55,863 nt of DNA from Candidatus Iainarchaeum sp. (GTDB taxonomy: Archaea; Iainarchaeota; Iainarchaeia; Iainarchaeales; Iainarchaeaceae), in contig NZBD01000016.1 in the NCBI GenBank assembly GCA_002687735.1, positions 1 to 55,863 of the forward strand, given 5' to 3'. The notes below the pieces were generated by a model, which made no database searches, was not told the origin of the DNA, and saw nothing but the letters and a program-made list of their open reading frames with translations. The position numbers were made by a program, and so were the translations under genes. Shown piece by piece: positions 8,551 to 53,138 of this stretch; the stretch's first letter is position 1, and every line of letters starts with the position of its first letter.

Positions 8551-8631
8551 GCATACAATAAATTCACGGTTATTAATAAACTTTTTCCAATGGACGGGTA
8601 TTTTTAACAAGAACTATTCCTCAGTATAAAT

Positions 8632-10369: not shown

Positions 10370-10999
10370 TCATTTCTTCAAATAAGGCAGAACATTTCCT
10401 TTTTGTTCGGCTTCTTTAATTAGTTTTTTTGCGAAAAGCATTCTCTGGATTGAACCAATAAATGCAATAACCGCGATTAACCATAATGCAATTTCTAATA
10501 TTTTCAAATTAAAAAAATCCAAAGAAAAAATTGAAAGGAAAATTCCAGCAAGGAGTAAAAGCATTCTTTCAGAGTGTTCTCCTAAAGCAGGCCAATCGCG
10601 ATTATCCGTAATAATCACTAATGCAACCCTTGGTTTTGCATAACTATTCAAAAGAGAAAATGCAAGAGCAAAAATAGCTGCTAAAGGATGTAAAAAAGCC
10701 GTTCCAAGGAAAAGAATTATCTCAACTAATTTGTCAATCATTGTTTCGAAATAGTTTCCAAACAAAGAATCCTTTTTCTGAAGCCTTGCCACTGAACCAT
10801 CAAACATATCAATTGAAACAGCAAATAACGCGATTATAAAAGATTCTAAAAATTGCCCCTGAATAATAAAAAAAGCAGCAATTATAGCTAGTAAGGGACC
10901 TAGTAAAGTAAACAAAGTAGGGGGAAATTTGATAGCCGCAAAAGGCTTTGCAACAGCCTCAGTAAAGGCTTTTGTATGAGGTCTTAGTGATCCTAGCAT
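10370..10999 (-). CDS. CDP-alcohol phosphatidyltransferase family protein (archaeal phospholipid head-group synthase type)
   Basis: Contains the family's DxxDGxxAR core, DMFDGSVARL...G...D. The protein is polytopic, 209 aa. Confidence 0.8.
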   Translation of the reverse strand: MLGSLRPHTKAFTEAVAKPFAAIKFPPTLFTLLGPLLAIIAAFFIIQGQFLESFIIALFAVSIDMFDGSVARLQKKDSLFGNYFETMIDKLVEIILFLGTAFLHPLAAIFALAFSLLNSYAKPRVALVIITDNRDWPALGEHSERMLLLLAGIFLSIFSLDFFNLKILEIALWLIAVIAFIGSIQRMLFAKKLIKEAEQKGNVLPYLKK

Positions 11000-11076
11000 G
11001 GAATTACCTTTATTATTACATTATATAATAATGATCAATATAAAAGAAATATAATATACTAATAACAGGGATTCAC

Positions 11077-39143: not shown

Positions 39144-39854
39144 ATGTCTTCAAATAAAGCATTAAATAAATCAATTATAATTATCCTGCTCTTTGTATTT
39201 TCTATTATTGCATTTTATACAGGTTATAGTAAACAATCCGGAACTCTTGAACCAGACATGGTTTTTGAGGTTCTTTCATTCAGTGATTTTGCACATTCAA
39301 TTGATGAACTAAATAAAGTTGCAGCACTAGCAGGAATAGGACTTATTGCATTAGCTTTTTTATCAGGCCCACTATCCAGACTTTGGCCAAAAACATGCGC
39401 ATGGTTGCTTCCAACAAGAAAATATGTAGGAATTGGAGGATTTATTCTTGCAGCTCTTCATTCAATTTATGCGATAATTATTTTTTACGATTTAGATTTA
39501 AACCAAATACTTTTAGAAAACCCCCATGCATTAGCAATAATTTTAGGAATAATAGCCATACTAATTTTTGCATTAATAACATTTACTTCTACTAAAAAAG
39601 CAGTTAAGCAAATGGGCTATTCAAAATGGAAAACTATCCAAACAACAGGATATGTAGCTCTTTTACTTGCAGTTATTCATTTTATCCTTTTAGAAACAAA
39701 ACCTGAAATAGGCCTTAGTGTGAGACCCTATGGATTGCTTTTCCTTGCTATAGCAATTATTGCACTAGCAATGAAAGGACTAATGATTTTGATCCAAAGC
39801 CCTGAAAAGAAAAGTTATGAGGAACACATTGGCGAATCAAAGAAAAAGAAGTAG
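39144..39854 (+). CDS. polytopic membrane protein, ferric-reductase-like (YedZ/MsrQ-type) transmembrane domain suspected
   Basis: Six hydrophobic helices with conserved-looking His residues (FILAALHSIYAII, LLLAVIHFILLE). The assignment is by eye only. Confidence 0.5.
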   Translation: MSSNKALNKSIIIILLFVFSIIAFYTGYSKQSGTLEPDMVFEVLSFSDFAHSIDELNKVAALAGIGLIALAFLSGPLSRLWPKTCAWLLPTRKYVGIGGFILAALHSIYAIIIFYDLDLNQILLENPHALAIILGIIAILIFALITFTSTKKAVKQMGYSKWKTIQTTGYVALLLAVIHFILLETKPEIGLSVRPYGLLFLAIAIIALAMKGLMILIQSPEKKSYEEHIGESKKKK

Positions 39855-39944
39855 TCTCCTCAAAAAATACTGCATTATAGCTATTACTGATAAACGCTGA
39901 ACTTTTAAAGCTTCTCAGAGCTAATTTTCAGTGCCAAACTAATG

Positions 39945-39994
39945 CTTTTTCTTTTGGCAAAGCTTTTCTTTTTCACGAAAAAGAAAAGGTTTAG
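39945..39994 (+). promoter_or_regulatory. conserved tRNA-Ser upstream module, copy 1 (motif CTTTTTCTTTTGGCAAAGC plus 11-bp hairpin CTTTTCTTTTT-CACG-AAAAAGAAAAG)
   Basis: Near-identical module at 43785-43839. It abuts tRNA-Ser(GGA). Confidence 0.5.
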
Positions 39995-40078
39995 GCGGTG
40001 ATGGCAGAGTGGTCAAATGCGCACGCTTGGAAAGCGTGTTTCTTCACGGGAGCGGGGGTTCAAATCCCTCTCACCGCG
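39995..40078 (+). tRNA. tRNA-Ser (anticodon GGA), type II with long variable arm; no encoded CCA
   Basis: Hand-folded cloverleaf. Acceptor stem GCGGTGA/TCACCGC, anticodon stem CACGC/GCGTG with loop TTGGAAA, T-arm GGGGG-TTCAAAT-CCCTC. Confidence 0.9.
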
Positions 40079-40081
40079 TAT

Positions 40082-41293
40082 TTATTTTTTCTCCAACACA
40101 AACACTTTATCATTTTCCCTTACTCTTTCAGAAACTTTTATTCCTACTTTTTGGGATTTTTTAGCTCGTTTAAGTTCAGTGTGATTAATCTGCATAGAAG
40201 TTAAATCCTGTTCTAAAAACGTAGTGGCACCCTCAAAAACAATTTTATCACTAATTGAAATATTTTCAATTAGCTTTACCTCAGCCACCCCTGCTTTTGC
40301 ATAATACTTTTTTACTGTTCCAACCATAACTTTTCTTTGGGTTTGTTTGCTTCCTTGCTTATCAGTTAAATCATTTTTATCAGGCTTGCGGAGAAAAAAC
40401 CCTGTTGAAAAGCCTCTGTTGAAAACCTTTGAAAGTTCTTTGTCCCAAACAATTATTTTCTTTTTTGAAAAAGTTTTGTCAAACACAGAATCAATTGCTT
40501 CTCTATAACATTTAGTTACCGCAACAACATAATCGCTTGGCTTTGTTCTTCCTTCGATTTTTAAGGAAGAAACTCCGGAAGCAATTATTTTATCCAAAAA
40601 CTCAATTGTTTTCATATCCTTTGGGGAAAGAATTGTGTCTCCTCTAATTTCAAGTTCCTTTTTTTCAGAACCCTTATGACCGTCAAAAAAATACGCACGC
40701 CTGCAAACCTGCAGACATTCCCCCTTGTTGGCACTTTTTCCAAAAAGCTCATGGCTCATAAAGCATCTTCCAGAAACAGCAATGCACATTGCACCATGAA
40801 CAAAAATTTCTACTTCAATTCCCAGATTTTTTGCATTTTTAGTAATTTTATTTATCTGATCTAATGAAAGTTCTCTTGCTAAAACAATTCTTTCAGCACC
40901 AAGATCTTTGTATTGCTGTAATGCAATTGAATTTCCAATGCTTGCCTGAGTGCTTATGTGAGGCTCTAATTTTAGTTTTTTTACAATTGAAAGAACACCC
41001 AAATCAGAACAAATTACCGCATCGACTTTTGCTTTTTTTGCCTGTACAAGAACTTTTTCCATTTCCTTCATTTCTTCTTCAAACACAACAGTATTCAAGG
41101 CCAAATAACCTTTCACTTTATTTTCACGGAGATAACTCATTAGCTTTTTCAGTTCAGATGTTTTAAAATTGGTTCCAAGGTCACGCATATTGAAGCCTTT
41201 AACCCCAAAATAAACAGCATCAGCACCGTTCTTTACCGCAGCAATTGCACAAGAGAAGTTTGCTACACCCACCAATAATTCTGGTTTTTCCAT
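40082..41293 (-). CDS. peptidase U32 family protein
   Basis: The N-terminus PELLVGVANFSCAIAAVKNGADAVYFGVKGFNMR and overall 403 aa length match the U32 (collagenase-like / RNA hydroxylation) family. Confidence 0.85.
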   Translation of the reverse strand: MEKPELLVGVANFSCAIAAVKNGADAVYFGVKGFNMRDLGTNFKTSELKKLMSYLRENKVKGYLALNTVVFEEEMKEMEKVLVQAKKAKVDAVICSDLGVLSIVKKLKLEPHISTQASIGNSIALQQYKDLGAERIVLARELSLDQINKITKNAKNLGIEVEIFVHGAMCIAVSGRCFMSHELFGKSANKGECLQVCRRAYFFDGHKGSEKKELEIRGDTILSPKDMKTIEFLDKIIASGVSSLKIEGRTKPSDYVVAVTKCYREAIDSVFDKTFSKKKIIVWDKELSKVFNRGFSTGFFLRKPDKNDLTDKQGSKQTQRKVMVGTVKKYYAKAGVAEVKLIENISISDKIVFEGATTFLEQDLTSMQINHTELKRAKKSQKVGIKVSERVRENDKVFVLEKK

Positions 41294-41335
41294 AACTAAG
41301 AAGCGTTAGGAAAGAATTAAAAAAAGAAAAAGAGG

Positions 41336-41357
41336 TTAAATGGCATACGCCATTTAA
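41336..41357 (-). terminator. 9-bp hairpin TTAAATGGC-ATAC-GCCATTTAA overlapping the pilin-like gene stop, followed by a T-rich tract on the minus strand
   Basis: Perfect inverted repeat. On the minus strand it is followed by CCTCTTTTTCTTTTTTT. Confidence 0.5.
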
Positions 41358-41803
41358 CTGCAAATTCCAACTAATGGTTTAGATCCTGTTTGTTTAGCAG
41401 CTACCAAACCATTCTGCACAGTGTATGTTAATACAATATCATACTGATATACATCCCCTGCTGTACAGGTTACGTCTGTATCTGTGAATGTTGTCTGGCC
41501 GCCTACAGCAATATTAACATCTGCAAGACCAAGTGCTAATCCGTCAACAGAAATATCGTCAATCTGAATCTTATCAGTTGTCTGATTTCTGAGGATAAAA
41601 TCTATGTTTGTACCGTCATTGTCCCATTGGGTTATTGCTAATGGGCTTGTTGATTGCCAGTACGCTCTACTTTGCTGCTCAGTAATCTGGGTTCCTAATC
41701 CTGGGAACCAACCCATTACTCCTGCAACAACCAAAGCAACAACAATAATAACTGCCAAAATGATCAGATATTCTGTTGTTCCTTGTCCCTTTTTTTCAAT
41801 CAT
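41354..41803 (-). CDS. archaeal type IV pilin-like protein with class III signal peptide
   Basis: GAGGTG lies upstream of the ATG at 41803. The sequence MIEKKGQGTTEYLIILAVIIVVALVVAG has the KKG/Q processing-site pattern with Glu at +5. Confidence 0.7.
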   Translation of the reverse strand: MIEKKGQGTTEYLIILAVIIVVALVVAGVMGWFPGLGTQITEQQSRAYWQSTSPLAITQWDNDGTNIDFILRNQTTDKIQIDDISVDGLALGLADVNIAVGGQTTFTDTDVTCTAGDVYQYDIVLTYTVQNGLVAAKQTGSKPLVGICS

Positions 41804-41922
41804 ATTTTGTTTCACCTCACTACTCCAAAACTAATTGGGAAAACTTGTAGGATTAAGCTATTATTCCTTATAAAGGTTACTCCGTTAAAAGGCCAAAAAC
41901 TGGCCCAAAAAGGCATTTGCTA

Positions 41923-43008
41923 CTATAAAAACAACAAAAGAAGCAACCCATAATCTTGTAAAGTACCTGCAATCCCGCCATTCTCTATTGTAACTCTTCT
42001 TATTACCGCACCTGGAACATATGCATTGATATACGCTTTAGTGCCATGCTGAACAGCATGCCTAAAATGAATGTCCTCTATCCTAATTGTATCTGTTTTA
42101 TCAGATGGATTTTGAGATCTAACAATAGCATTTAGACCAATCTCAATAATTGGTTTTGCTCCTGTTCCATAAGCACCCATAAAAGTCCCGTGCGGAAGAT
42201 TAAACTTGTCACTATCAGCAATACTCCAAGAATCTCCTCTTTTCAACAGCAATTTCTGTAGTGAAGGTCCGGCAGCTATTATTTGACTCCTAGCTCCGCT
42301 AAGAGTCTGAAAAGGCTCTGCTTCAGTTCCGGGATTAGAATCATTCCCGCTATTAGCAACATAATAAACCGGCCCGCTGAAAGCATCAACAGTAATTTGA
42401 GTTGAGGTTGAAGCAGACAGTCCTATTGAATCAGTTACGGTTAATGTAACAGTATAAGTTCCATCATTATCAAAACGATGAGCAACAAGCATACCCTCAT
42501 CAGTTTGAGAATCCGCAGAACCACTATCACCAAAATCCCAAGCATACTCAACAACCTCTGCACCACCAGCAGCACTGGATTCAATTCCGGAAAACAGCAA
42601 AGTCAGAGGTGCAACCATCAGAACATCAGGATAGTAAATATCAGGGTTTGGAGGTTCTCCTGATGCAATGCACACTCCTGATGAATGGCCAAAGTCACAG
42701 CAATAACCAAAAGTTTCTTCCCCTCCATTACAAATACAGGTTTCTGTAATCGCCGCATCAATTGTACACTGAGGAATAATAATCTCCGGACAATCCCCAA
42801 AAAAAGTAGATATTAAAATTAAATCTTCTATACCAACTGTACCGCTGTTATCAACATCTGACTTTGGATCCTGGCCGCCCCAATGCTTGACAATATTAAC
42901 CAGATCAAAAATATCCACCCTATTATCCCCAGTAATATCTTCACATTCGGCTGCAAAAGCCATAGAAGAAAAGCTTAGCATAAATAACAAAAGAATTACT
43001 TTTTTCAC
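41923..43008 (-). CDS. secreted dockerin - Cys-rich linker - PKD - (short) beta-helix N-terminal segment protein
   Basis: Signal peptide MKKVILLLFMLSFSSMAFA. The dockerin duplicate is DITGDNRVDIFDLVNIV...DVDNSGTVGIEDLILIS. The PKD domain is WDFGDSGSA...HRFDNDGTYTVTLTVTDS. Then YYVANSGNDSNPGTEAEPFQTL follows, typical of the start of right-handed beta-helix domains. Confidence 0.75.
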   Translation of the reverse strand: MKKVILLLFMLSFSSMAFAAECEDITGDNRVDIFDLVNIVKHWGGQDPKSDVDNSGTVGIEDLILISTFFGDCPEIIIPQCTIDAAITETCICNGGEETFGYCCDFGHSSGVCIASGEPPNPDIYYPDVLMVAPLTLLFSGIESSAAGGAEVVEYAWDFGDSGSADSQTDEGMLVAHRFDNDGTYTVTLTVTDSIGLSASTSTQITVDAFSGPVYYVANSGNDSNPGTEAEPFQTLSGARSQIIAAGPSLQKLLLKRGDSWSIADSDKFNLPHGTFMGAYGTGAKPIIEIGLNAIVRSQNPSDKTDTIRIEDIHFRHAVQHGTKAYINAYVPGAVIRRVTIENGGIAGTLQDYGLLLLLFL

Positions 43009-43105
43009 ACATTAAAAACGCTTAAATAGTATAAAATTATATCTGATTGTTACAAATCAATACTTTAATAGAAGTATTTTAAACAGGCAATAACAACAAT
43101 TATAC

Positions 43106-43756
43106 ATGGTTAAAATAGCAGCCTCAGTTCTGAATGCTGATTTCTCAAAATGGCAGGAATGGCTTCCAAAATTAGAGGAAGCAAAAGTTGATAGAATCCA
43201 ATGGGATATAATGGATAACAAATATGTTCCGAATAATGGAGTGGATAAAAAGTGGCTGGCTGAATTGAGAAATCACACAAAAATATTTTTTGAATCACAC
43301 CACATGGTTAAAAAACCAGAAGAGCAAGTAACCGAGTTTGCAGAAATGGGAAGCAACATGTTTATTTTCCATATTGAAACAACAAGCGAACCATTAAAAC
43401 TTATTGAAAAAATTGAAGAACACGGAATGAAAGTAGGAATAGCAGTAAATAATCAAACTCCTGTTGAAAAGATTTTTCCTTATTTGGATAAAGTTGATCT
43501 TGCTTTAGTGATGACTGTGGAAGCTGGTTTTGGAGGGCAAAGTTTTGTTGAAAAAAACCTTGAAAAAGTAAAAGCACTCAGAAAAAAGATCGATTCTGAA
43601 AAACTTGATTGTAAAATAGAGGTTGATGGCGGAATTGACGCAAAAACAGGAGCATTATGCGTTGCTTCTGGAGTTGATGTACTAGTATCAGGTTCCGGTA
43701 TATTCAAACACCCAAAAGGCATTGCAGAAGCCGTAAAAGAGCTCCATAAATCCTAA
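43106..43756 (+). CDS. rpe: ribulose-phosphate 3-epimerase
   Basis: DIMDNKYVPN, HHMV and EVDGGI motifs. Length 216 aa. Confidence 0.92.
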   Translation: MVKIAASVLNADFSKWQEWLPKLEEAKVDRIQWDIMDNKYVPNNGVDKKWLAELRNHTKIFFESHHMVKKPEEQVTEFAEMGSNMFIFHIETTSEPLKLIEKIEEHGMKVGIAVNNQTPVEKIFPYLDKVDLALVMTVEAGFGGQSFVEKNLEKVKALRKKIDSEKLDCKIEVDGGIDAKTGALCVASGVDVLVSGSGIFKHPKGIAEAVKELHKS

Positions 43757-43784
43757 TGTGAGGCTTTTTAACCTTATTTGGGTT

Positions 43785-43839
43785 CTTTTTCTTTTGGTAC
43801 AGCTTTTATTTTTCTTCTCAAGAAAAAGAAAAGGTGTGA
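43785..43839 (+). promoter_or_regulatory. conserved tRNA-Ser upstream module, copy 2
   Basis: CTTTTTCTTTTGGTACAGCTTTTATTTTTCTTCTCAAGAAAAAGAAAAGGTGTGA aligns with 39945-39994. Confidence 0.5.
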
Positions 43840-43923
43840 GCGGAGATGGCGGAGTGGTCTAACGCGCCTGCCTTGAGAGCAGGTGAGCTTCGGCTCGCGG
43901 GGGTTCGAATCCCTCTCTCCGCG
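43840..43923 (+). tRNA. tRNA-Ser (anticodon TGA), type II; no encoded CCA
   Basis: Acceptor stem GCGGAGA/TCTCCGC, anticodon stem CCTGC/GCAGG with loop CTTGAGA, variable arm TGAGCTTCGGCTCGC, T-arm GGGGG-TTCGAAT-CCCTC. Confidence 0.9.
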
Positions 43924-44020
43924 TACCAGCAAGCCCGCTGGTGTAGGGCGTGCACCTTCGGTAGCACTTGCGGCTGTGTGGTACGCTAACGTCCAACCAA
44001 TTGCAAAACAATTGGTTATA
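43924..44020. ncRNA. GC-rich structured element A adjacent to tRNA-Ser(UGA); strand unresolved
   Basis: Hairpins at 43950-43967 and 43995-44017. It shares three sub-modules with element B (49559-49680), including compensatory stem changes. Confidence 0.4.
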
Positions 44021-44035
44021 AATTAAGAATTTATG

Positions 44036-44054
44036 CTTTTTCTTTTGGTACAGC
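44036..44054 (+). repeat. orphan third copy of the 19-nt tRNA-upstream motif CTTTTTCTTTTGGTACAGC (identical to 43785-43803)
   Basis: Perfect 19/19 direct repeat, 251 bp downstream of copy 2. No tRNA follows it. Confidence 0.8.
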
Positions 44055-44058
44055 AGAG

Positions 44059-44403
44059 CTATCTTCTTCTAGATCTAGGGACATTTCCAATTGCTTTTCT
44101 CGCAGCCTTGGAACGTACACTCTGTTCCTTAACGCCCTTTTTTCCAACAGTAACTATTGACCGCGCATTACGATTTTTTCTGCCTGAACGGCCAAGTCGC
44201 ATATCGCTTTTTTTTATCATTTTTCTTTCAATCAAATAATCTGCTTTTTTCCGCAATTCAGTATCAGTCATTGCAATACCATGTTCAGACAGCCAATCAG
44301 CAATCATTGGAATTGTATGAGTTTTATGCAAACGAATTATAGGTCCATAAATGGGATGCTTATCAAACTCAATATACCTTTGAGTATACACCTTCTTGAC
44401 CAT
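44059..44403 (-). CDS. hypothetical protein with compact N-terminal domain and Arg/Lys-rich tail (orphan)
   Basis: 114 aa ORF ending ...GRSGRKNRNARSIVTVGKKGVKEQSVRSKAARKAIGNVPRSRRR. Confidence 0.5.
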   Translation of the reverse strand: MVKKVYTQRYIEFDKHPIYGPIIRLHKTHTIPMIADWLSEHGIAMTDTELRKKADYLIERKMIKKSDMRLGRSGRKNRNARSIVTVGKKGVKEQSVRSKAARKAIGNVPRSRRR

Positions 44404-44503
44404 AAAATATACATAAAAAAAGTAGTATTTAATACCTGTCTAAAAAATAAAAACTCATTATTACCGCACATTTAAAATGCTTTTGGAAGCGAAATGTGAT
44501 TGT

Positions 44504-45070
44504 ATGAAAGCGCTCGTACTGGTTTTAGGTTTGATTCTAATTGTTTCTGGTTGTACACAGCAGGCACAAGAGCAAAGTGATTTGGATGACGGCCAATCAC
44601 TTGTATCAATTGAAAACAGCGAAGTTTTAGAGGGGGTTAATGAAATGGCAGTTGAAAACGGAGATACAATAAAAGTAGAATATGTGGGAACTTTCCCGGA
44701 CACTGGTGAAGAGTTTGATAAGAGCGAAGGAAGAGGGCCATTAGAGTTTGTTGTTGGTACTGGAATGATGATTAAAGGATTTGATGCAGCAGTTGTTGGA
44801 ATGGCACTTAACGAAGAGAAAACAGTTCAGATTCCTCCTGAGGATGCTTATGGAAAATCTGGAGAAGGGCAGACTGTTGAGGTGCCTGTTGAACAAATAC
44901 AAACAGGAGAAGAAGAAATTGCAGTAGGAACTTCTGTATTTTCAAGCAATGGCCAGCAGGGGAAAGTAACAGCAATAACTGACGGTGTTGCAACAGTAAT
45001 GTTTGAACATGCATTAGCGGGAAAAACATTACAATTCTGGATTAAAGTGGTAGACATCCAAAAGGGTTAA
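44504..45070 (+). CDS. FKBP-type peptidyl-prolyl isomerase, SlyD-like with insert-in-flap domain, carrying a lipoprotein-type signal peptide
   Basis: The ATG at 44504 gives MKALVLVLGLILIVSGCTQQ. The FKBP core is VEYVGTFPDTGEEFDKS...GMMIKGFDAAVVGM. The C-terminal part is EHALAGKTLQFWIKVVDI. A TATA-like box lies about 33 nt upstream. Confidence 0.85.
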   Translation: MKALVLVLGLILIVSGCTQQAQEQSDLDDGQSLVSIENSEVLEGVNEMAVENGDTIKVEYVGTFPDTGEEFDKSEGRGPLEFVVGTGMMIKGFDAAVVGMALNEEKTVQIPPEDAYGKSGEGQTVEVPVEQIQTGEEEIAVGTSVFSSNGQQGKVTAITDGVATVMFEHALAGKTLQFWIKVVDIQKG

Positions 45071-45102
45071 AATCACTTTTCTACTAATTTTTTTAGATAA
45101 AA

Positions 45103-45513
45103 ATGACTGAATGTGTTTTTTGCAAAATAGGCAAGGGGGAAATTACCCCCAAAAAAATTTACGAAGACCAAAATATAATAGCTTTTTTGGATATTTTTCC
45201 GGCAGCAAAAGGACACTCTTTAGTGATTCCAAAAAAACATTACGCTACTTTGCTTGACATTCCTGAAATGGAACTGAAAGAATTAATTCAGATTGTTCAA
45301 AAAGTTGGGGCTGCAGTAATGAAAGCAACTCAAGCAGATGGTTTTAATGTTTTACAGAATAATAAAGAAGCAGCCGGGCAAGCTGTACCGCATTTACACT
45401 TTCACATTATCCCCCGATTTAAAGATGATGGTTTGAAGCTTGCTTTAGGTTCAAAGCAAAGTGAAGAAAAGGAACTTGTGCATTGGGAAAGTCTAATCAA
45501 AGAACACATTTAA
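45103..45513 (+). CDS. HIT-family (histidine triad) nucleotide hydrolase
   Basis: CVFCKI... and the histidine triad HLHFHIIPR. Confidence 0.9.
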   Translation: MTECVFCKIGKGEITPKKIYEDQNIIAFLDIFPAAKGHSLVIPKKHYATLLDIPEMELKELIQIVQKVGAAVMKATQADGFNVLQNNKEAAGQAVPHLHFHIIPRFKDDGLKLALGSKQSEEKELVHWESLIKEHI

Positions 45514-45659
45514 TGATAAGCAATTGTTCTGTTTAATTTTTTTTCAACAGGTTTAGCACCGCTTCCATAATGTTCATGAATAATATGGTTTTCAGCTTCC
45601 TTTCTGGCATAGAGCATACTTACTCCAAATTTCTTTCCGCAAACAGGACACATATACAT
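45510..45659 (-). CDS. small (49 aa) C2H2-like zinc-finger protein
   Basis: GGGAGGT lies upstream of the ATG at 45659. The sequence is MYMCPVCGKKFGVSMLYARKEAENHIIHEHYG. The ORF track shows a longer 65-aa version. Confidence 0.55.
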   Translation of the reverse strand: MYMCPVCGKKFGVSMLYARKEAENHIIHEHYGSGAKPVEKKLNRTIAYH

Positions 45660-45780
45660 CTCACTACCTCCCTTCTCAGGAGGTTCCAAAATCAGCAAAT
45701 TAACCAAACTAATGATAATCTATTCTTTTTCCATCACCATGAGGCGAGGGTTTAAATTTGAAAAAATCCTTTTGAATAAA

Positions 45781-47166
45781 ATGCCCCAAAAAGCAATAGA
45801 GGACACAGGCACAAGAACAAGACTAAATAAAGCAATAAGTCTTAAAGAAGCAACTATTTATGGGATAGGAGTAATTCTCGGGGCAGGAATTTATGCTCTT
45901 TTAGGAGAGGCTTCAGGAATCGCAGGAAATGCAACCTGGCTTTCGTTTGTAATAGGTGCAATAATAGCTTCCTTTACTGCATTGAGTTATGCGGAACTGA
46001 GTTCTATTTTTCCAAGGGCAGCAGCAGAATTTGTTTATGTGAAAAATTCAACAGGATCATTCTTTCTTGCATTCATTGTTGAGTATATTGTTTTTCTTTC
46101 ATTAATTTTTAGTGCAGCGGCGGTATCATTCGGTTTTGGAGGCTACTTAAACAGCTTGGTCGGAAGCAATATTCTTTACACTGCAGCAGTTGTGATTATT
46201 TTACTTTCAATACTGAATTTTAAAGGAATTAAAGAATCTGCAAGGTTCAACATTATTTCAACATTTGTCGAGGTTGGAGGATTGGTACTCATCATTCTTC
46301 TCGGATTAAGTTTTGTCGGAAGTGTTGATTATTTTGAGGTTCCGAACGGAGTGAGCGGAGCAACAGATCTGGGAGAATTATTCATTCCAATTTTTGGAGC
46401 AACCGTGTTAGTGTTTTTTGCGTACCAAGGTTTTGAGGAATTGGCAAACCTTACAGAAGAAACACAGGAGTCAAAGAAAAATATTCCAAAAGCAATGCTT
46501 ATAGCATTGGCAATAACCACAATCCTTTACATACTTGTTTCAATAGTAGCGGTTAGCGTGGTTAATTATGCTGAGCTTGCAGAAAGTGCCGCACCCCTTG
46601 CAATGATTGCTGAAAGAGCAGGGGGATCTGGAATGGGGCAATTGCTTGGATTAATAGCATTGTTCGCAACAGCAAACACTGTTCTGATTTTGCTGATTTC
46701 TTCATCAAGAATGCTTTACGGAATGTCAGCACAGGGAGCAATTCCAAAATTATTTTCAGAGGTGCATGAAAAAACAAAAACCCCGATGTTTTCAATTGCA
46801 TTCTCAGCAATAATTGCAATAATATTCCTTGTCTTTGTGAATGACCTGAGAGATTTAGCAATGTTAACCAACATGGCTATATTTTTGAGTTTCTTTTCGG
46901 TTAATGCATCACTTATTTTAATCAGATTTTCAAAGAAAAAGTATGAAGCTGGTTTCAGGGCTCCGTTCAATATTGGAAAGCTTCCAATAACCGCTGTTCT
47001 GGGTTGCCTGTCAAGTTTGATAATGCTGCCACAGCTATTACAGCCAATGATCATTTTAGGAATCGAGCTCCCGATAATACTTTTTGGAGGACTGATAATG
47101 GTTCTGGGAATCCCGGTTTATTACTTTGGAAAAAGCAGACAAATAGACCCAATACTTGGCAAATAA
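45781..47166 (+). CDS. APC-superfamily amino acid permease
   Basis: 12-TM architecture with GIGVILGAGIYALLGEA near the N-terminus. The ATG at 45781 is the preferred start. Confidence 0.88.
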   Translation: MPQKAIEDTGTRTRLNKAISLKEATIYGIGVILGAGIYALLGEASGIAGNATWLSFVIGAIIASFTALSYAELSSIFPRAAAEFVYVKNSTGSFFLAFIVEYIVFLSLIFSAAAVSFGFGGYLNSLVGSNILYTAAVVIILLSILNFKGIKESARFNIISTFVEVGGLVLIILLGLSFVGSVDYFEVPNGVSGATDLGELFIPIFGATVLVFFAYQGFEELANLTEETQESKKNIPKAMLIALAITTILYILVSIVAVSVVNYAELAESAAPLAMIAERAGGSGMGQLLGLIALFATANTVLILLISSSRMLYGMSAQGAIPKLFSEVHEKTKTPMFSIAFSAIIAIIFLVFVNDLRDLAMLTNMAIFLSFFSVNASLILIRFSKKKYEAGFRAPFNIGKLPITAVLGCLSSLIMLPQLLQPMIILGIELPIILFGGLIMVLGIPVYYFGKSRQIDPILGK

Positions 47167-47210
47167 GCAGATAGTAAGTAATTTATACTTCTCCAGAGTT
47201 GATTTTATTC

Positions 47211-48146
47211 ATGGATGAAAAGATGCAAAAAACATTAGTAAATGTACTTATCCTTGTTGTGTTATTGTTTGGATTATTAGTTGTGCTTATTTTTACAGGA
47301 ATACTTGGATGCAACAGTGTTCCTTTTGGTTGTGATGCATATTACACTATTTTGAAAGGCGGACAACCTTCAATACTAATTGCTTACGGAGCAAATGGTT
47401 TAGGGAATTATGAAAAACTTGAAGCTGTTTTAAGCGACAGAAGCCTTGTGAATGCGAGAGCAAGGGCAATGAGCATTGATAAGCTATCGCAGGGAAACGT
47501 AAATGATTTTGATTTGATAATAGTGGAGGAGGCAAAACAGATATGCTCTGACAAACTCAAAATGTTCCAGAATTATGTAATCAAGGGAGGCCGCTTAATC
47601 TGGACTGCAGATGCAGGAACTGAATTATGTGAAGAGGATTCTTATTTGTTAGAATCAGAAAGGGAAGTTGATGGTGAAGAAGTTCCTATTGGACCTTGGG
47701 CAAGAAGAGATGGCTCCAAACAACTTTCTTTTGACGAATTTTTAGGGGTAAATTTCAAGGGGAATGTTTGTGACTTAACAGAATGTACTCCGGGAGAGGA
47801 AATTGGCAGAATAGAAGTTCTGGATGATGAACATAAATTAACTTATGGTTTAAGCCCTTCAATCCCTTACTCTGGAAACTTTTCAGTTGTAAAAACAAAC
47901 AGTTCAGGAACAACAACAATTGTATCAATAATAGATTATGGATTTGACTTTTTAGCAACACCAAGCGGACAGCCATGGTTAAGCGAGGAAAGAACTAACT
48001 TTGGCAAAAACCTTCCGTTCATTATTACAAGCGGTGTCGGGGAAAGGGTTGCTTATTACGCCGCACCAATAGAAAGCTTTGTGGAAGGAGAACAACCATA
48101 CAAAGCAATGATAGAACAATTGTATTATGGGATGTTATATAATTAG
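47211..48146 (+). CDS. hypothetical N-terminally anchored extracytoplasmic protein
   Basis: One TM helix (LVNVLILVVLLFGLLVVLIFTGIL) followed by a ~270 aa soluble domain. No motif recognised. Confidence 0.6.
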   Translation: MDEKMQKTLVNVLILVVLLFGLLVVLIFTGILGCNSVPFGCDAYYTILKGGQPSILIAYGANGLGNYEKLEAVLSDRSLVNARARAMSIDKLSQGNVNDFDLIIVEEAKQICSDKLKMFQNYVIKGGRLIWTADAGTELCEEDSYLLESEREVDGEEVPIGPWARRDGSKQLSFDEFLGVNFKGNVCDLTECTPGEEIGRIEVLDDEHKLTYGLSPSIPYSGNFSVVKTNSSGTTTIVSIIDYGFDFLATPSGQPWLSEERTNFGKNLPFIITSGVGERVAYYAAPIESFVEGEQPYKAMIEQLYYGMLYN

Positions 48147-48155
48147 TGAATTATT

Positions 48156-48623
48156 ATGGTACATTTCAGAATTATTTCAAAAGTTAGAGAGAAACTTTTG
48201 AAAATAAAAAAAGATTTAGATAAAAGACAGCCAATACATGAAGCTCATGCAACTGCCAAAGGAAAAGATCCCCTTTTTGTTAAAACTCTATTTTTTATTA
48301 GCAGGGAAGGAAGATCACATAGAGTAATAATTAATGAAGCTTTAAATCAAGCAGGAATTGATCCGCAAAACCCAAGAAATAAAAAAACTGTTAGAACAGT
48401 TCATGATATTGCACAGGAACTTGGAAAAATAGATGCGCTTAAAAGGGATGGATTAATTTCTGAAGAAGAATATGAAAACGGACTTTTAGAAAATAATCAA
48501 AAATTTAAAGAATTACTAACTCCATTAATCGGGAAAAACGGAATCACAAAATTCAGAGAATATATAATTTCATTTTTTGAAATAAAAAGGCAATTACCAT
48601 TACACGAAAACAGACAAAATTAG
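48156..48623 (+). CDS. hypothetical basic protein (orphan)
   Basis: 155 aa ORF tightly packed between neighbouring genes. No recognisable family. Confidence 0.5.
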   Translation: MVHFRIISKVREKLLKIKKDLDKRQPIHEAHATAKGKDPLFVKTLFFISREGRSHRVIINEALNQAGIDPQNPRNKKTVRTVHDIAQELGKIDALKRDGLISEEEYENGLLENNQKFKELLTPLIGKNGITKFREYIISFFEIKRQLPLHENRQN

Positions 48624-48625
48624 AA

Positions 48626-49417
48626 TTATTTTTTCTTTCCGCCCATTTTTTCAAAAGCTCTGAGTACCTCTAATGGAACTGCAAACACAACAGTATTACT
48701 TTGATCAGAACTCAGATCATTAAGAGTGTTTAAAGTTCTTAAGTGCATTGCACCAGCGGAAGCACTAAGTGTTTTTGCTGCTTTGGCAAGATTATTGGAA
48801 GCAACAACTTCCCCCTCAGCTTTAATAATAACAGCTCTTTTTTCTCTTTCAGCTTCAGCCTGCTTAGCCATTACTCTTTTCATATCCTGAGGCAGTTCAA
48901 CATCCTGCATTTTAATATTAGTAATGTCAATTCCCCAAGCATCAGTTTCAACATCAACCAATTTTTTTATCTGGGAACCTATTTCTTCTCTTTTTGTAAG
49001 AACAGTATCAAGGGTTGATGCACCCACAATATCCCTCAAAGCAGTCTGAGCTAACTGTGCAGTTGCAAAAATATAATCTTGAATATCCAGAACAGCCTTT
49101 GCAGGATCTTTAACTTTGAAATAAATAACCGCATTAATATTAACCGGAACATTATCCTTAGTCATAACCTCTTGTTTTGGAACATCAATTGTTTTGATCC
49201 TGATATCTACCTTCCTATAACCCTGAATAATAGGAATAAGGAAATTAACCCCCGGATTCATGATCCCGGCATATTTACCAAGAGTGAATTTTACTCCTCT
49301 TTCATACTGAATTATAATTCTTACAAAAAGTACAACAAAACCAACTAACAGAACAACCAGCCAGAAACCGCTGAAAAGAATAAACCCTATCGTCCCTAAA
49401 ACATCTAAAGCCATCAA
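48626..49417 (-). CDS. SPFH/band-7 (stomatin/prohibitin-like) membrane protein
   Basis: N-terminal TM helix, then IIQYERGVKFTLGKY...DVPKQEVMTKDNVPVNINAVIYFKV...AEAEREKRAVIIKAEGE. Confidence 0.9.
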   Translation of the reverse strand: MMALDVLGTIGFILFSGFWLVVLLVGFVVLFVRIIIQYERGVKFTLGKYAGIMNPGVNFLIPIIQGYRKVDIRIKTIDVPKQEVMTKDNVPVNINAVIYFKVKDPAKAVLDIQDYIFATAQLAQTALRDIVGASTLDTVLTKREEIGSQIKKLVDVETDAWGIDITNIKMQDVELPQDMKRVMAKQAEAEREKRAVIIKAEGEVVASNNLAKAAKTLSASAGAMHLRTLNTLNDLSSDQSNTVVFAVPLEVLRAFEKMGGKKK

Positions 49418-49443
49418 ATCACTACTATTATTGTGTTACAAGC

Positions 49444-49453
49444 ATATTTAAAA
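49444..49453 (+). promoter_or_regulatory. TATA-like ATATTTAAAA about 35 nt upstream of tRNA-Arg
   Basis: Sequence and spacing. Confidence 0.45.
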
Positions 49454-49483
49454 GTTTGTCCATAGCCAATTCCTAACGTGTAT

Positions 49484-49558
49484 GGATCCGTAGCTCAGCC
49501 TGGATAGAGCATCTGCCTTCTAAGCAGAGGGTCGCGAGTTCGAATCTCGCCGGGTCCG
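49484..49558 (+). tRNA. tRNA-Arg (anticodon TCT); no encoded CCA
   Basis: Acceptor stem GGATCCG/CGGGTCC, D-arm GCTC-AGCCTGGATA-GAGC, anticodon stem TCTGC/GCAGA with loop CTTCTAA, T-arm GCGAG-TTCGAAT-CTCGC. Confidence 0.92.
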
Positions 49559-49680
49559 CTCTCCGTTTGCGTCCGGAGGTAACGCAGAGGTCCAACCCCT
49601 TGTTTGCAAGGGGTTATAACGCGACAAATGAATCTGTCCTACCGAAGGTGGACGCGTACCCCACAGCCGCAACTGTGGCT
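49559..49680. ncRNA. GC-rich structured element B between tRNA-Arg(UCU) and the argS promoter
   Basis: Hairpins at 49594-49615, 49636-49653 and 49661-49678. It is homologous to element A. Confidence 0.4.
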
Positions 49681-49727
49681 TTCTAAAAGCATTAAATAGC
49701 TAATTACACTCAATATAAGTGATAAAA

Positions 49728-51419
49728 ATGGATTTCAGAAAAGAATTATTAAAAGCACTTTCAAAAGCAGGAATCAAAAAACCTGAAGAATTACTGGAGC
49801 AGCCGCCACAAAGAGAAATGGGAGATTATGCTTTACCCTGCTTTAGGCTTACAAAAGAATTCAAAAAAAGCCCTAACGAAATCGCTTCTGACTTTAAAGA
49901 AAAAATCAAGCTTCCGAAAGCATTTACAAAAGCAGAAGCCAAAGGCCCTTATTTAAATTTCTTTTTAGACGAAAAAACTTTCGCAAAAAACACAATTGAA
50001 AAAATTCTCAAAGAAAAAAACGCGTATGGTTTGGAAAAAAAGAAAGGCCCGAAAATAATTGTGGAATATTGTCAGGCAAACCCGATGAAAGCATTCCATA
50101 TAGGACACATAAGAAACATTTGTTTAGGAGAATCGATTTCCAGAATTTTTGAAGCAAGCGGAGTAAACGTTTCAAGAGTTAATTACGGCGGGGATGTTGG
50201 ACCGCATGTAAGCAAAACACTTTATGCTTATCAGAATCTGAACAAGAAAAAAATACCTGAAAAAATAGAAGAAAAAGGAGCATGGTTAGGAAACCTTTAT
50301 ACCCAGGGAGCCAAAGCAGTAAAGGAAAACCCTGAATTAGAACAAAAAATGCGGGACATGGTTGTTGAGTTAGAGGCAGGAAACAAAAAACTTGTGAAAG
50401 ACTGGGAAAAACTCAGAAAAATGAGTTTAGGTTATTTTGATACGATTTATGACAGCCTGAACACTAAATTTGATAATATTATTCTTGAAAGCGAAGTTGA
50501 AAAAGAAGGGATAAAAATTGCAAAACAACTCCAAAAAGAAAAATTTGCATATGAAGATGAGGGAGCATTACTTGTTGATCTTACAAAATATAACCTTGAA
50601 AAATTCCTAGTGTTAAAAAGTGACGGAGCAGCCCTTTACTCAACTAAGGATATGGCTTTAGCAAAGATGAAAAAGCAAAAGCTCAAAGCAGACAAAACCT
50701 ACAATGTGGTTGGTTCTGAACAAAAGTTTTATTTCCAACAGCTTATCAAAACAATATCCTTAATGAACAAAAAGAAAAACGAGTTCTGTGAAACAAAACA
50801 TGTTTCTTATGAGCTCGTAAGATTAGAAGGTGGCAAGATGGCTTCACGAGAAGGAAACGTGATTACTTATGCTGAATTATTTAACACGATTTTTGAAAAA
50901 ACTTACAAAGAAACAAAATCCCGTCACAAAGACTGGAGTGAAAAGAAAATCTCAGAAAACGCAAAACAAATAGGTTTAGCAGCAATCAAATTCGGAATGT
51001 TGGGACATGACAAGAACAAAGTTATTATTTTCAACTGGGAAAAAGCAACAAGTCTAGAAGGGGAAACAGGACCGTTTATACAGTATAGTTATGCAAGGGC
51101 AAAAAGCATCTTAAAAAAAGCTAAAAAAACAAAACCAGGATCATTCAGTTTAACCCATGAAAAAGAAAAAGGGCTTGTGTCAATTTTAGCAAATTATGAA
51201 AATAAAGTAAAAGAAGCAAAAGACAGTATAAGCCCGCACAAAATCGCTTATTATCTTATTGAATTGGCTTCAGCATTCAATTCTTTTTACCATGAAGTAA
51301 GGGTTCTGGATGCAGAAGAAAAACTTATAGGGGACAGGGTTGCTTTAGTTGAATCGGTATCTCAAGTATTGCAAAATGGGATGGATTTGCTTAACATTAA
51401 AGCCATTGATGAAATGTAA
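49728..51419 (+). CDS. argS: arginyl-tRNA synthetase
   Basis: HIGH-type motif NPMKAFHIGHIRN, KMSK-equivalent GKMASREGN, and a C-terminal anticodon-binding domain. TATA-like GCATTAAATAG lies about 35 nt upstream of the ATG at 49728. Confidence 0.93.
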   Translation: MDFRKELLKALSKAGIKKPEELLEQPPQREMGDYALPCFRLTKEFKKSPNEIASDFKEKIKLPKAFTKAEAKGPYLNFFLDEKTFAKNTIEKILKEKNAYGLEKKKGPKIIVEYCQANPMKAFHIGHIRNICLGESISRIFEASGVNVSRVNYGGDVGPHVSKTLYAYQNLNKKKIPEKIEEKGAWLGNLYTQGAKAVKENPELEQKMRDMVVELEAGNKKLVKDWEKLRKMSLGYFDTIYDSLNTKFDNIILESEVEKEGIKIAKQLQKEKFAYEDEGALLVDLTKYNLEKFLVLKSDGAALYSTKDMALAKMKKQKLKADKTYNVVGSEQKFYFQQLIKTISLMNKKKNEFCETKHVSYELVRLEGGKMASREGNVITYAELFNTIFEKTYKETKSRHKDWSEKKISENAKQIGLAAIKFGMLGHDKNKVIIFNWEKATSLEGETGPFIQYSYARAKSILKKAKKTKPGSFSLTHEKEKGLVSILANYENKVKEAKDSISPHKIAYYLIELASAFNSFYHEVRVLDAEEKLIGDRVALVESVSQVLQNGMDLLNIKAIDEM

Positions 51420-51452: not shown

Positions 51453-53138
51453 ATGGGCGATAGCTTCAAAAAAGAGTTGACTGATCTTAAAAAAACAATA
51501 AGAAAGTTCCATCCTAAAGCAGACCTATCCATGGTGGAAGAAGCATTCTACTTTTCAAAAAATGCCCACGAAAAACAGTTCAGAGCATCAGGAAAACCTT
51601 ATTTTACACACCCTTTAGAAGTAGCAAAAATACTTGCGGGAGAAGGCCTTGATAAAGTAATTATAAGTGCAACACTTTTACATGATGTTATTGAGGACAC
51701 AAAAGCAAGTAGAAAAGAAATTGAATCTCTTTTTGGAAAAAAAGTATCCGCTCTGGTGGAAGGAGTAACAAAACTCGACATGTTGTCATTTAAGTCAAGA
51801 CAGGAGTACTCAACAGCTGCAATAATAAAAACAATAATTGCTGCATCCAAAGACCTGAGAGTATTAGTGATAAAAATATTTGACAAACTCCATAATATGA
51901 GAACAATTAAATATTTGCCAAAAGAAAAACAAAGAAGAATAGCAAGTGATATTCTCAGCATTTATGTTCCGCTTATCCATAAATTAGGTATGCATGAAGT
52001 AAAATATGAGTTGGAAGAAATTTCATTCAAAATTTTAGAACCAAAAAAATACAAAAAACTGAAAAGACTTATTACTAAGGAAAGAAAAAAGAAATTAAAA
52101 GAAGTTTATAAAGCTGCAGAAATTTTAAAGAAAAAATTCCAGAAAGAAAAATGGGAATTTTCACACGAAACAAAATCTATCTACTCACATTATTCAAAAA
52201 TAGTTGGAAAAAACAAAGAAATCAGCGAACTAAACGATTATGCAATACTTAAAATATTTGTAAAAAACAAGTATGACTGTTATACTGCAATGGGTAAAAT
52301 ACACTCATTATTCAAACCTATACCTTATAAAATCAAAGATTTTATTGCAATACCAGAATACGGCATTTACAAAGCATTACACTCACAAGTCATCGGGCCA
52401 ATGAAAAAACCACTTAAAATTTATATAATAACAAGAGAACTTGATGATATTGGTGAAAAGGGAATTGTGAGTTACTTAAAAAATAACCAGCTAGAAGAGT
52501 TCAATAAATTTTCAGAATCATTGCCAAAGCTAAAAACCCCTTCTATTAAAAATAATAAACAACTGGCTGAAACAATGGATCTGGAGTTTCACAATAATAC
52601 AATGCTTGTATTTACAACTAAAGGAGAATCACTGACTCTCCCTCCAGAATCAACAGCCCTTGATTTTTCATACTTTACAAATGAAAAAAATTCATATAAA
52701 GCATCTGCAGCAAAAATAAACGGAAAATTAGTCCCCTTATGGAAGCAACTTAACACTGGAGACCGAGTAAAAATACTTTACTCTAATACAAGCCACCTTA
52801 ACTCTAGTTGGCTTAGTTTTGTTAATTCAGACAAATCAAAAAACTTTATAATGCATCAACTGGAAAAGAAACGAAAATCCAGTAAGAAAACGGGGGAAAT
52901 TGCAAGAATAAGAATAGAGGCTATTGACAGACCAAAATTAATAATGGATCAAATAATAATTTTAGCAAAAAATGGTTTGGACATAGAAACATCAATCTCA
53001 AGAATGAACGAAGATAGCACTACTTGTTATTCAGAATTTTTTATCAGAGATAAAAATATTAAAAATCTTCAAAAAGTAGTTCAGCAGCTCAAAGAATTAA
53101 AGGAAACTCTAAACGTTAACTTATCCTACACTAAATAA
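51453..53138 (+). CDS. long RelA/SpoT homolog (HD hydrolase - synthetase-like - TGS - ACT); synthetase motifs look degenerate
   Basis: The HD domain GKPYFTHPLEVAKIL...LLHDVIEDT...DKLHNMRT resembles bacterial Rel closely. The synthetase-like region is ETKSIYSHYSKI...DYAILKIFV...YKALHS...LKIYIITRE. The TGS-like region is MLVFTTKGESLTLPPESTALDF. Confidence 0.85.
   Translation: MGDSFKKELTDLKKTIRKFHPKADLSMVEEAFYFSKNAHEKQFRASGKPYFTHPLEVAKILAGEGLDKVIISATLLHDVIEDTKASRKEIESLFGKKVSALVEGVTKLDMLSFKSRQEYSTAAIIKTIIAASKDLRVLVIKIFDKLHNMRTIKYLPKEKQRRIASDILSIYVPLIHKLGMHEVKYELEEISFKILEPKKYKKLKRLITKERKKKLKEVYKAAEILKKKFQKEKWEFSHETKSIYSHYSKIVGKNKEISELNDYAILKIFVKNKYDCYTAMGKIHSLFKPIPYKIKDFIAIPEYGIYKALHSQVIGPMKKPLKIYIITRELDDIGEKGIVSYLKNNQLEEFNKFSESLPKLKTPSIKNNKQLAETMDLEFHNNTMLVFTTKGESLTLPPESTALDFSYFTNEKNSYKASAAKINGKLVPLWKQLNTGDRVKILYSNTSHLNSSWLSFVNSDKSKNFIMHQLEKKRKSSKKTGEIARIRIEAIDRPKLIMDQIIILAKNGLDIETSISRMNEDSTTCYSEFFIRDKNIKNLQKVVQQLKELKETLNVNLSYTK

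Follow-up and report, generated by a model that had tools for sequence, protein, structure and literature searches.

Two transfer RNA (tRNA) genes of a DPANN archaeon carry, directly behind their 3' ends, members of an apparently undescribed family of folded cassettes that reside on the tRNA genes of this lineage. The stretch of DNA analysed, here called the window, comprises 55,863 nucleotides (nt) of Candidatus Iainarchaeum sp. from a marine (TARA) metagenome. Element A follows tRNA-Ser(UGA) (43840-43923, plus strand; detected by ARAGORN and by the Rfam model RF00005 at 61.8 bits), and element B follows tRNA-Arg(UCU) (49484-49558/9, plus strand; 68 bits in Rfam). An initial annotation had described the two elements as homologous, GC-rich and structured members of no known RNA family, and this description is borne out. 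The GC content amounts to 0.62-0.66 over 43850-43999 (tRNA-Ser(UGA) and about 100 nt downstream) and to 0.56-0.61 over 49500-49649 (tRNA-Arg and its trailer) as compared to 0.35 for the window. At the gathering thresholds of Rfam 15 only the three tRNAs of the window are retrieved, and a search at E<=10 over 39800-50000 returns no match inside A or B. The third of these tRNAs, tRNA-Ser(GGA) (39995-40078, plus strand), has a T-run immediately 3' and no cassette trailer. None of the window tRNAs encodes CCA, and all have AT-rich TATA-like boxes about 30 nt upstream.

The cassette itself is 60-70 nt long and, in the window as in the trailers of relatives, follows a common plan. One or two nt past the discriminator base begins a hairpin, S1, with 5-7 base pairs (bp) and a loop of 6-8 nt; a linker of 2-5 nt leads to a segment, S2, that is complementary to the S1 loop, and a short conserved linker R-A-S leads to the 3' part, which consists of G(U/G)CC, a second hairpin termed H, AUAA and usually R-UUU. 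H is made up of AACC, 5-7 variable bp, a loop of 3-5 nt and GGUU. The position of S1, 1-2 nt past the discriminator base, is the same in A, B and the related loci L003, L128 (two tRNAs), L131, L142, L144 and L126, and the linker between S1 and S2 varies from unit to unit (GUA, UC, GUGC, AAGG). R-UUU(U) directly follows AUAA in 9 of 13 units tabulated by eye, with a stronger T-run within about 30 nt. The S1 loop and S2 form a probable pseudoknot or alternative helix. The initial annotation had overlooked S1, which lies directly after each of the two tRNAs (43925-43942 and 49561-49578) with its loop able to pair with the next segment.

The evidence for these structures comes from comparison. Related loci (the L-numbers) were gathered by synteny through two neighbouring proteins, and 15 more were gathered from metagenomes with a DNA pattern for H, four of which (L135, L141, L146 and L147) were dropped because their stems were not complementary. 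Twelve distinct units from relatives of Candidatus Iainarchaeum, including those of the window, constitute alignment A1. Across these 12 units S1 and H covary strongly and S2 moderately. For S1, S2 and H combined, 89.7% of the A1 cells are standard pairs against 71.6% in shuffled alignments, none out of 500 reaching the observed value, and pairing falls to 34-41% when the partners are slid by one to three columns. All six S1 pairs and five of the ten H pairs have changed on both sides, the other five H pairs being invariant, while S2 reaches 80.6% pairing, its GC/GC core being invariant and three of its pairs covarying. RNAalifold independently recovers the same S1 and H. The proposal that H is a truly covarying stem is thereby confirmed well beyond A and B, in that its inner part differs and yet stays complementary in 12 distinct copies. 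The longest helices between the first loop and the downstream sequence sum to 87 over 17 units including introns, as compared to shuffles that average 62.9 and reach 77 at most (0 of 2000), in a test that draws on only four to five independent loop types.

The two ends of H are conserved in a different manner from its interior. Units found by synteny (A and B, L002, L003 and two L128 units) have the same H flanks with one G/U difference, and the flanks differ in L131 and in one L128 unit. The Y/linker region of A, described below, and a complete unit 3' of tRNA-Ser(UGA) in L128 are identical at 29 of 31 positions, across genomes of 35% and 49% GC in which a neighbouring epimerase is only 71% identical; over that same genome distance the interior of the H stem has been wholly replaced by other complementary sequence. 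Such a combination of an almost unchanged linker and a replaced stem points to more than passive tolerance, and something probably recognises the foot of the hairpin.

A covariance model composed of S1 and H, R1, was run over 256 kb of related DNA; A and B match it by construction, both being in the seed alignment. Element B reads as one complete unit (49559-49619) followed by an inverted partial unit. The complete unit is matched by R1 at 49560-49622 with 67.5 bits. Its S1 hairpin, CUCCG/CGGAG with the loop UUUGCGUC (49561-49578, plus strand), belongs to the covarying S1 of A1; the S2 strand ACGCAGA (49582-49588, plus strand) is complementary over 7 bp to UUUGCGU of the S1 loop, and the H module (49590-49619, plus strand) comprises GUCC, the hairpin 49594-49602/49607-49615 and AUAA. 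H is then followed by CGCGAC and 60 nt more of GC-rich sequence. On the minus strand at 49636-49679 the inverted partial unit reads CCACAG UUGCGG CUGUGG GGUACGC and then the X hairpin GUCCACCUUCGGUAGGAC, with a weak R1 match on that strand at 49611-49679 (19.1 bits, E 0.12).

Element A reads as a composite of two units, namely an S1/S2 module (43925-43949), the X hairpin, and the 3' part of a second unit (43968-44021). The first module, ACCAGC AAGCCC GCUGGU GUA GGGC, contains the S1 hairpin ACCAGC/GCUGGU with loop AAGCCC (43925-43942, plus strand), which starts 2 nt past the discriminator base and is predicted in the minimum free energy fold, and the S2 strand GGGC (43946-43949, plus strand), which is complementary to GCCC of the loop and was included in the 17-unit complementarity test. 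The same S1 loop recurs with different complementary stems in L128a, L131, L137 and L002 fragment 3. The X hairpin, GUGC-ACC-UUC-GGU-A-GCAC (43950-43967, plus strand), appears to be a small independent hairpin cassette that joins the two units. Then follows Y with UAAC (UUGCGG CUGUGU GGUACGC UAAC; 43968-43990, plus strand), in which the loop, the 3' strand and the downstream strand of a second unit, truncated at its 5' end, can be recognised, and finally the H module (43991-44021, plus strand) with GUCC, a 9-bp hairpin (43995-44003/44009-44017) around the loop CAAAA, and AUAA. R1 matches at 43962-44024 with 62.7 bits. The 5' stem strand that the second unit has lost is present in its complete version, which occurs after tRNA-Ser(UGA) in L128 and in L134 and reads CCACAG UUGCGG CUGUGG GGU-CGC-AAC GUCC-H-AUAA.

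These comparisons bear on how the resemblance between A and B had been described. The repeats themselves are real: GTCCAACC-N-GGTTATAA, the pattern for H, matches the window twice (43991-44021 and 49590-49619) and never in 100 shuffles; the 19-mer Y has two matches on opposite strands with one mismatch, where none is expected, and the pair was also recovered as the inverted repeat I12 (22 nt, 91%); the 12-nt core of X, CTACCGAAGGTG, is exact at 43953 (minus) and 49639 (plus). Equally genuine are the compensated differences, AA/TT to CC/GG in the H stem and G3-C16 to C3-G16 in X, each X copy retaining its own hairpin. By contrast, H, X and Y cannot be upheld as three equivalent modules in permuted order. 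Because Y corresponds in relatives to the loop, 3' strand and downstream strand of the unit's first hairpin, A is better understood as a fusion with X at the joint and the X'Y' segment of B as an inverted partial unit.

Copies in relatives are subject to rapid turnover. The orthologous tRNA-Arg has no trailer in L001 (arginyl-tRNA synthetase (ArgRS) 90% identical), an intron of about 87 nt and no trailer in L002 (ArgRS 88% identical), and a trailer consisting of S1/S2 and H only in L003 (ArgRS 77% identical). Trailers with the cassette follow tRNA-Ser in L128, L131, L142 and L144. R1 added a second L142 copy (3122-3185, 54 bits) located after a protein gene and an acceptor-like fragment, an inverted copy on the minus strand of L133 that abuts a tRNA fragment (49 bits), second units in L128 (36 and 33 bits), and, in L126, a copy inside the tRNA-Ser(UGA) intron (38 bits, E 5e-6). 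The L126 intron and the tRNA-Ser trailer of L142 share 26 identical nt (UCCGAGCUGCUCCUCGGAAGGGAGCA) within the S1/S2 module. Comparable arrangements are found in the tRNA-Ser(GGA) intron of L122, where the S1 loop CUGCUC is present with GAGCAG downstream and then a hairpin, and in the tRNA-Arg intron of L002, with S1 CCUUG/CAAGG, loop CAGAAU and AUUCUG downstream. The interruption of the L126, L122 and L002 tRNAs is confirmed by Rfam tRNA matches 157-164 nt long; these intron copies retain S1/S2 and the hairpin without the GUCC and AUAA flanks. In L002 (three), L128 (two), L133 and L142 the cassette is preceded by a tRNA 3'-end fragment of 11-24 nt. Some 16 of 19 copies point in the same direction as the tRNA or fragment beside them, and the only two R1 copies in the 56 kb of the window are both at tRNAs. 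Whether copies always adjoin a tRNA, a question raised alongside the initial annotation, can be answered in the negative, as introns, tRNA fragments, stand-alone and inverted settings occur as well. Gains, losses, fusions and inversions that have occurred rapidly among closely related genomes indicate that the cassette is dispensable and evolutionarily mobile.

The explanation that we prefer, and hold to be slightly short of an even chance, is that of a dispensable, mobile cassette that is co-transcribed with its tRNA, folds onto itself and is eliminated in the course of normal tRNA processing, H-AUAA-U being the mark of the transcript end. In the window, the cassette would be transcribed as the 3' trailer of its tRNA. 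The trailer would fold into S1, the S2 helix (as pseudoknot or alternative) and a terminal H with its conserved flanks, and RNase Z, by analogy with established pathways, would cut it off at the discriminator base. Where the cassette occupies tRNA position 37/38, the splicing endonuclease would presumably remove it as an ordinary intron. Its start 1-2 nt from the processing site, in trailers and introns alike, its co-orientation and the T-rich motif CTTTTTCTTTTGGTACAGC argue for an RNA that is borne on the precursor tRNA and disposed of by normal processing. CTTTTTCTTTTGGTACAGC at 44036-44054 (plus strand; repeat families D2/D3) is likely to serve as the oligo-T terminator of the tRNA-Ser-A unit; it also lies 3' of cassettes in L128, L133 and L144 and, in the window, just before tRNA promoters at 39945 and 43785. 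In evolutionary terms, the cassette may travel with tRNA 3'-end segments, which are hot spots of recombination and integration. Selection would maintain its tight self-pairing and so prevent interference with the folding of the tRNA, the self-contained GC-rich fold in an AT-rich genome shielding the tRNA from its passenger, and H-AUAA-U would probably mark and protect the 3' end of the primary transcript.

Several points weigh against this explanation. The linker of 2-5 nt is short for a true pseudoknot over an S1 of 5-7 bp, for which reason the S1 and S2 helices may form as alternatives to each other. That the flanks (ACGUCCAACC, GGUUAUAA) are so strictly conserved suggests that a specific partner recognises them, and a passive passenger does not account for such a partner; on the other hand, that invariance is partly one of construction, because 7 of the 12 A1 units were retrieved with a pattern that fixes the H flanks. 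Inverted copies exist (L133, L137/L140 and 49636-49679 of the window), as do copies without an intact tRNA (3122-3185 in L142, and L137/L140). The helices comprise 174 Watson-Crick, two G-U and five A-C pairs (G-U pairs being 2 in 189), and so near a lack of G-U pairs does not tie the structure to a plus-strand RNA rather than to DNA. The compensatory changes had been taken as a sign of selection on structure: the compensation is genuine, and since the helices are almost purely Watson-Crick it fits DNA hairpins as well as RNA and singles out neither strand nor molecule. Finally, tRNA 3'-end fragments, a 27-nt direct repeat and variable cargo are what site-specific recombination at tRNA genes produces, which lowers our confidence further.

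The last two points lead to the foremost alternative, a DNA-level mobile hairpin element or the remnant of a recombination site, in which S1, H and X would act as single-stranded or cruciform DNA hairpins for a recombinase or transposase. We regard this as possible but not probable, and the same applies to its concrete candidates, which are miniature integrative elements with the tRNA 3' end as att core, or IS200/IS605-like palindromes with G(U/G)CC and ATAA as feet. In its favour are the 11-24 nt tRNA fragments directly before cassettes (L002, L128, L133 and L142), the 27-nt direct repeat that brackets the inverted cassette of L137, the occurrence of both orientations, the nearly exclusive Watson-Crick pairing, the variable-gene hot spot after tRNA-Ser(UGA) and the varying presence of the cassette among close relatives. 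The repeated tRNA 3'-end fragments and the variable cargo beside the same tRNA in relatives are shared with the tRNA-gene integration sites of archaeal and bacterial integrative elements, whose att cores consist of tRNA 3' ends. However, Pfam detects neither an integrase nor a Y1/HUH transposase in the proteins that were scanned near A and B, nor do the existing annotations of the fetched related loci (about 250 kb), the fragment-bearing ones included, list any. Each tRNA 3' end is present in the window as a single copy, most copies share the orientation of their tRNA or fragment, and a cassette of merely 60-70 nt that also occurs as an intron, in the anticodon loop exactly at spliceable sites, is unlike an integrative element. 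The interleaved complementarity of S1 and S2 has no obvious role in DNA. Among 2.9 million viral contigs no related sequence was found: the H pattern gave no match, and the 5 X and 18 Y matches all lie in coding or chance contexts without extended similarity.

Palindromic DNA elements provide a further likeness. As in REP, palindrome-associated and attC elements, a conserved tetranucleotide stands 5' of a palindrome whose interior is variable yet complementary. For integron attC sites, GTCCAAC fits the inverse core RYYYAAC and GTTATAA fails GTTRRRY at two positions; the H module measures 30 nt versus at least 55 nt (55-140) for attC, and no IntI was seen. REP and IS200/IS605 elements, which are marked by many dispersed copies and a Y1/HUH transposase in the genome, may differ in that the window holds just two copies in 56 kb, both at tRNAs, and that no such transposase is found in about 250 kb of related loci, and all of these elements leave S1/S2 unexplained.

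A bolder reading is that one RNA-shaped cassette family moves between three sites of tRNA genes, namely 3' trailer, 5' leader and canonical intron site; we judge this doubtful, about on a par with the DNA element. Like archaeal bulge-helix-bulge introns, the cassette of relatives sits in the anticodon loop of tRNA-Ser or tRNA-Arg, is GC-rich and non-coding, and has a patchy distribution among close relatives. Unlike such introns, A and B follow the discriminator base of complete tRNAs and interrupt nothing. By inspection, without a dedicated motif search, no bulge-helix-bulge (two 3-nt bulges set apart by a helix of 4 bp) is visible at the borders of A or B, and H is a continuous stem of 9-10 bp. 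Nor was one seen at the junction of tRNA and trailer, where pairing of leader GGUG with trailer UACC in A yields a 3x1 internal loop, which is not the motif and competes with S1. To our knowledge, the shared architecture of S1/S2 plus hairpin has not been described for bulge-helix-bulge introns, and literature searches on tRNA introns and pseudoknots in DPANN and on tRNA introns in Diapherotrites found no description of such elements. Transposition of introns between tRNA genes has reportedly been proposed in Thermoproteales. In L127, what had looked like a tRNA intron encoding a LAGLIDADG protein proved to be a neighbouring gene, the tRNA-Leu there having a short intron only.

If movement between trailer, leader and intron did occur, the transcribed flanks of tRNA genes could be a source or a destination of archaeal tRNA introns, and the mechanism would recognise hairpin feet and tRNA cleavage sites, be it by reverse processing or ligation on RNA or by a dedicated recombinase. 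This touches on the old open question of the origin and spread of archaeal tRNA introns and of how they are connected with leader and trailer sequences in split and permuted tRNA genes. A cassette that occurs as the intron of one genome and shares 26 nt with a trailer in another, combined with fast turnover, offers a traceable object for intron gain and loss. In addition, a barely studied DPANN lineage hereby contributes a covarying structured RNA (or DNA) motif that Rfam lacks. As passive cargo it would be a modest curiosity; should the hairpin feet be the recognition site of a processing or recombination enzyme, it would point to new machinery.

The cassette could alternatively be a family of trans-acting small RNAs that borrows tRNA promoters and processing, with single-stranded ACG(U/G)CCAA and the hairpin foot as a binding site for protein or RNA. 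There is precedent for small RNAs from tRNA precursors in the tRNA-snoRNA dicistrons of plants, the box C/D RNA in the archaeal tRNA-Trp intron and the 3' external transcribed spacer RNAs of bacteria, in which, as may apply here, a structured RNA in a trailer or intron is co-transcribed and freed by the tRNA processing enzymes. Linker and flanks that are very highly conserved across genomes of different GC would suit such a role, nuclease-resistant small RNAs are usually built with a structured 5' end, here S1/S2, and a hairpin at the 3' end, and the stand-alone copy of L140 has an upstream TATA-like TTTATAT, just as second units in L128 and L133 have their own promoter copy. We nevertheless find this rather unlikely. 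The cassette is dispensable in close relatives, has no Rfam match and no guide-like conserved loop; C/D and H/ACA boxes are absent from A and B by eye, as had been stated initially, and the C/D-type Rfam matches at E<=10 lie elsewhere, far below threshold. In the window, the complement of GGUUGGACG matches exactly only in the elements, with one-mismatch sites at chance level. In addition, loops and stems of H are not conserved, and A is a broken fusion and yet retained. ARAGORN and RF00005 detect no tRNA-like gene in 43924-44021 or 49560-49680, and a subthreshold match to sX4 (17.7 bits against a gathering threshold of 70) extends from the tRNA over the initial 30 nt of A.

Improbable, in our estimation, is the notion that H-AUAA-U alone is functional, as a signal for 3'-end formation or termination by the archaeal RNA polymerase and aCPSF1, and that all else is debris. 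The R-UUU(U) after AUAA in 9 of 13 units with its nearby T-run is compatible with it, the flanks hug the foot of the hairpin as conserved flanks do in the stem-loop signal of histone mRNAs, and the intron copies, which have S1/S2 and a hairpin, do without GUCC and AUAA. S1, however, covaries as strongly as H; oligo-T is all that archaeal termination requires, and tRNA-Ser(GGA) ends on its immediate T-run; and in B, H is followed by the CGCGAC and 60 nt of GC-rich sequence noted above. A bacterial-type intrinsic terminator was rejected, as in most copies H is followed by AUAA before R-UUU and in B by CGCGAC thereafter.

A small self-cleaving ribozyme that frees the 3' end of the tRNA, or its own ends, without RNase Z is very improbable. 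It would be in keeping with a cassette that abuts the cleavage site in trailer and intron contexts, and the topology is pistol-like: in the pistol ribozyme (RF02679), too, a 5' hairpin pairs through its loop of about 6 nt with sequence further downstream and a second hairpin comes next, which corresponds to S1, S2 and H here. Against it, no ribozyme family including RF02679 matches at E<=10, there is neither a P2 nor a long conserved linker, the S1-S2 linker of 2-5 nt being variable, and few nucleotides outside the helices are conserved, conserved catalytic ones not among them. An HDV-like fold was rejected on the grounds that only 6-8 nt separate the S1 strands and that the 3' strand of S2 precedes H, an incompatible strand order.

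That A and B pair in trans through X and Y, in the manner of the split-tRNA flanks of Nanoarchaeum, is hardly credible despite the complementarity of X and Y in A to X' and Y' on the same strand in B, for both tRNAs are complete and of full length, the order of X and Y precludes one continuous duplex, relatives carry one element without the other, and the two differences in X keep the intramolecular hairpin while creating two A:B mismatches.

Beyond single cassettes, relatives possess arrays of related pieces. After a first cassette comes a copy of the promoter region of the tRNA, then TTCTGGA or TTCGGAT, a degenerate T loop, with the 3' strands of T-stem and acceptor; the array then mostly carries a second cassette. 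Such arrays lie at 3597-3843 and 11434-11577 of L128, 1711-1782 of L002, 1060-1229 of L133 and about 8090-8160 (minus strand) of L142. The TTCTGGA-type junction is common to the Ser-GGA and Ser-UGA paralogues, and is accounted for neither by a duplication followed simply by deletion nor by an att core. A second, AT-rich family of tRNA introns is characterised by a shared CGUUAACGG(A/G)AAAGAAA and long complementary U-rich and A-rich arms (17110-17195 of L122, 13300-13370 of L131 and 880-950 of L133); some relatives carry it in their tRNA-Arg(UCU), and the tRNA-Arg of the window lacks it.

The X hairpin has a distribution of its own. Identical or near-identical copies occur in the 5' leader of tRNA-Ser in L126 and within the gene for RNase P RNA in L003, where X (GTCCTACCGAAGGTGGAC, 11167-11184) lies inside 10927-11234 (minus strand); the RNase P RNAs of L001 and L002 are without X, a pattern reminiscent of the insertion of a small hairpin cassette into a functional RNA. 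The tRNAs of relatives have long, GC-rich 5' leaders filled with hairpins (8460-8560 and 7190-7240, minus strand, in L142; 5638-5711 in L002; 4085-4144 in L126), including the repeated X-like GU(G/C)C-CAUY-GAA-RAUG-G(G/C)AC, and X-like hairpins fill the leaders of L142. The three tRNAs of the window have AT-rich leaders instead.

The DNA directly 3' of tRNA-Ser(UGA) contains different genes in each relative and looks like an insertion hot spot. In the window an orphan open reading frame (ORF) of 114 amino acids (aa) at 44059-44403 (minus strand) follows tRNA-Ser(UGA) and A; it has no Pfam match and no similarity to the ORFs after tRNA-Ser in L002, which harbours an AAA_15 ATPase island and a ParE-like pair (1-2300). 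The corresponding places are taken by a two-ORF pair in L122 (10981-11431) and by an H+-pyrophosphatase in L131 (4550-6598). The elements themselves are overlain by mechanically called ORFs of 50 aa at 43859-44011 and 49520-49672, both on the minus strand. CTTTTTCTTTTGGTACAGC recurs at gene ends and before tRNA promoters of the window (39945-39974, 43785-43814 and 44036-44065), forming a 19-nt direct repeat that brackets tRNA-Ser(UGA) together with A, and is kept in relatives of 49% GC. A scan of contigs with GTCCAACC-N(11-19)-GGTTATAA was unspecific, giving more than 118 chance bacterial matches; the only genuine one, L077, is the L002 contig, labelled 'Candidatus Iainarchaeum archaeon'.

The proteins encoded near the elements include, by Pfam, arginyl-tRNA synthetase, ribulose-phosphate 3-epimerase, a RelA/SpoT-like protein and others, and their nearest relatives are metagenome-assembled archaea labelled 'archaeon', 'Candidatus Diapherotrites' or 'Candidatus Iainarchaeum'. 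The argS gene is located directly downstream of tRNA-Arg(UCU), with the ArgRS domains within 49719-51419. This arrangement, tRNA-Arg(UCU) directly upstream of and co-oriented with the ArgRS gene and a conserved AAAGCATTAAATA box between them, is found in four related genomes (49484-51419 in the window, 3761-6195 in L001, 9776-11692 in L002 and 4-1921 in L003). Proteins of the RelA/SpoT type are uncommon in archaea; the one at 51453-53138 of the window (HD_4, RelA_SpoT and TGS) is encoded beside ArgRS in all relatives.

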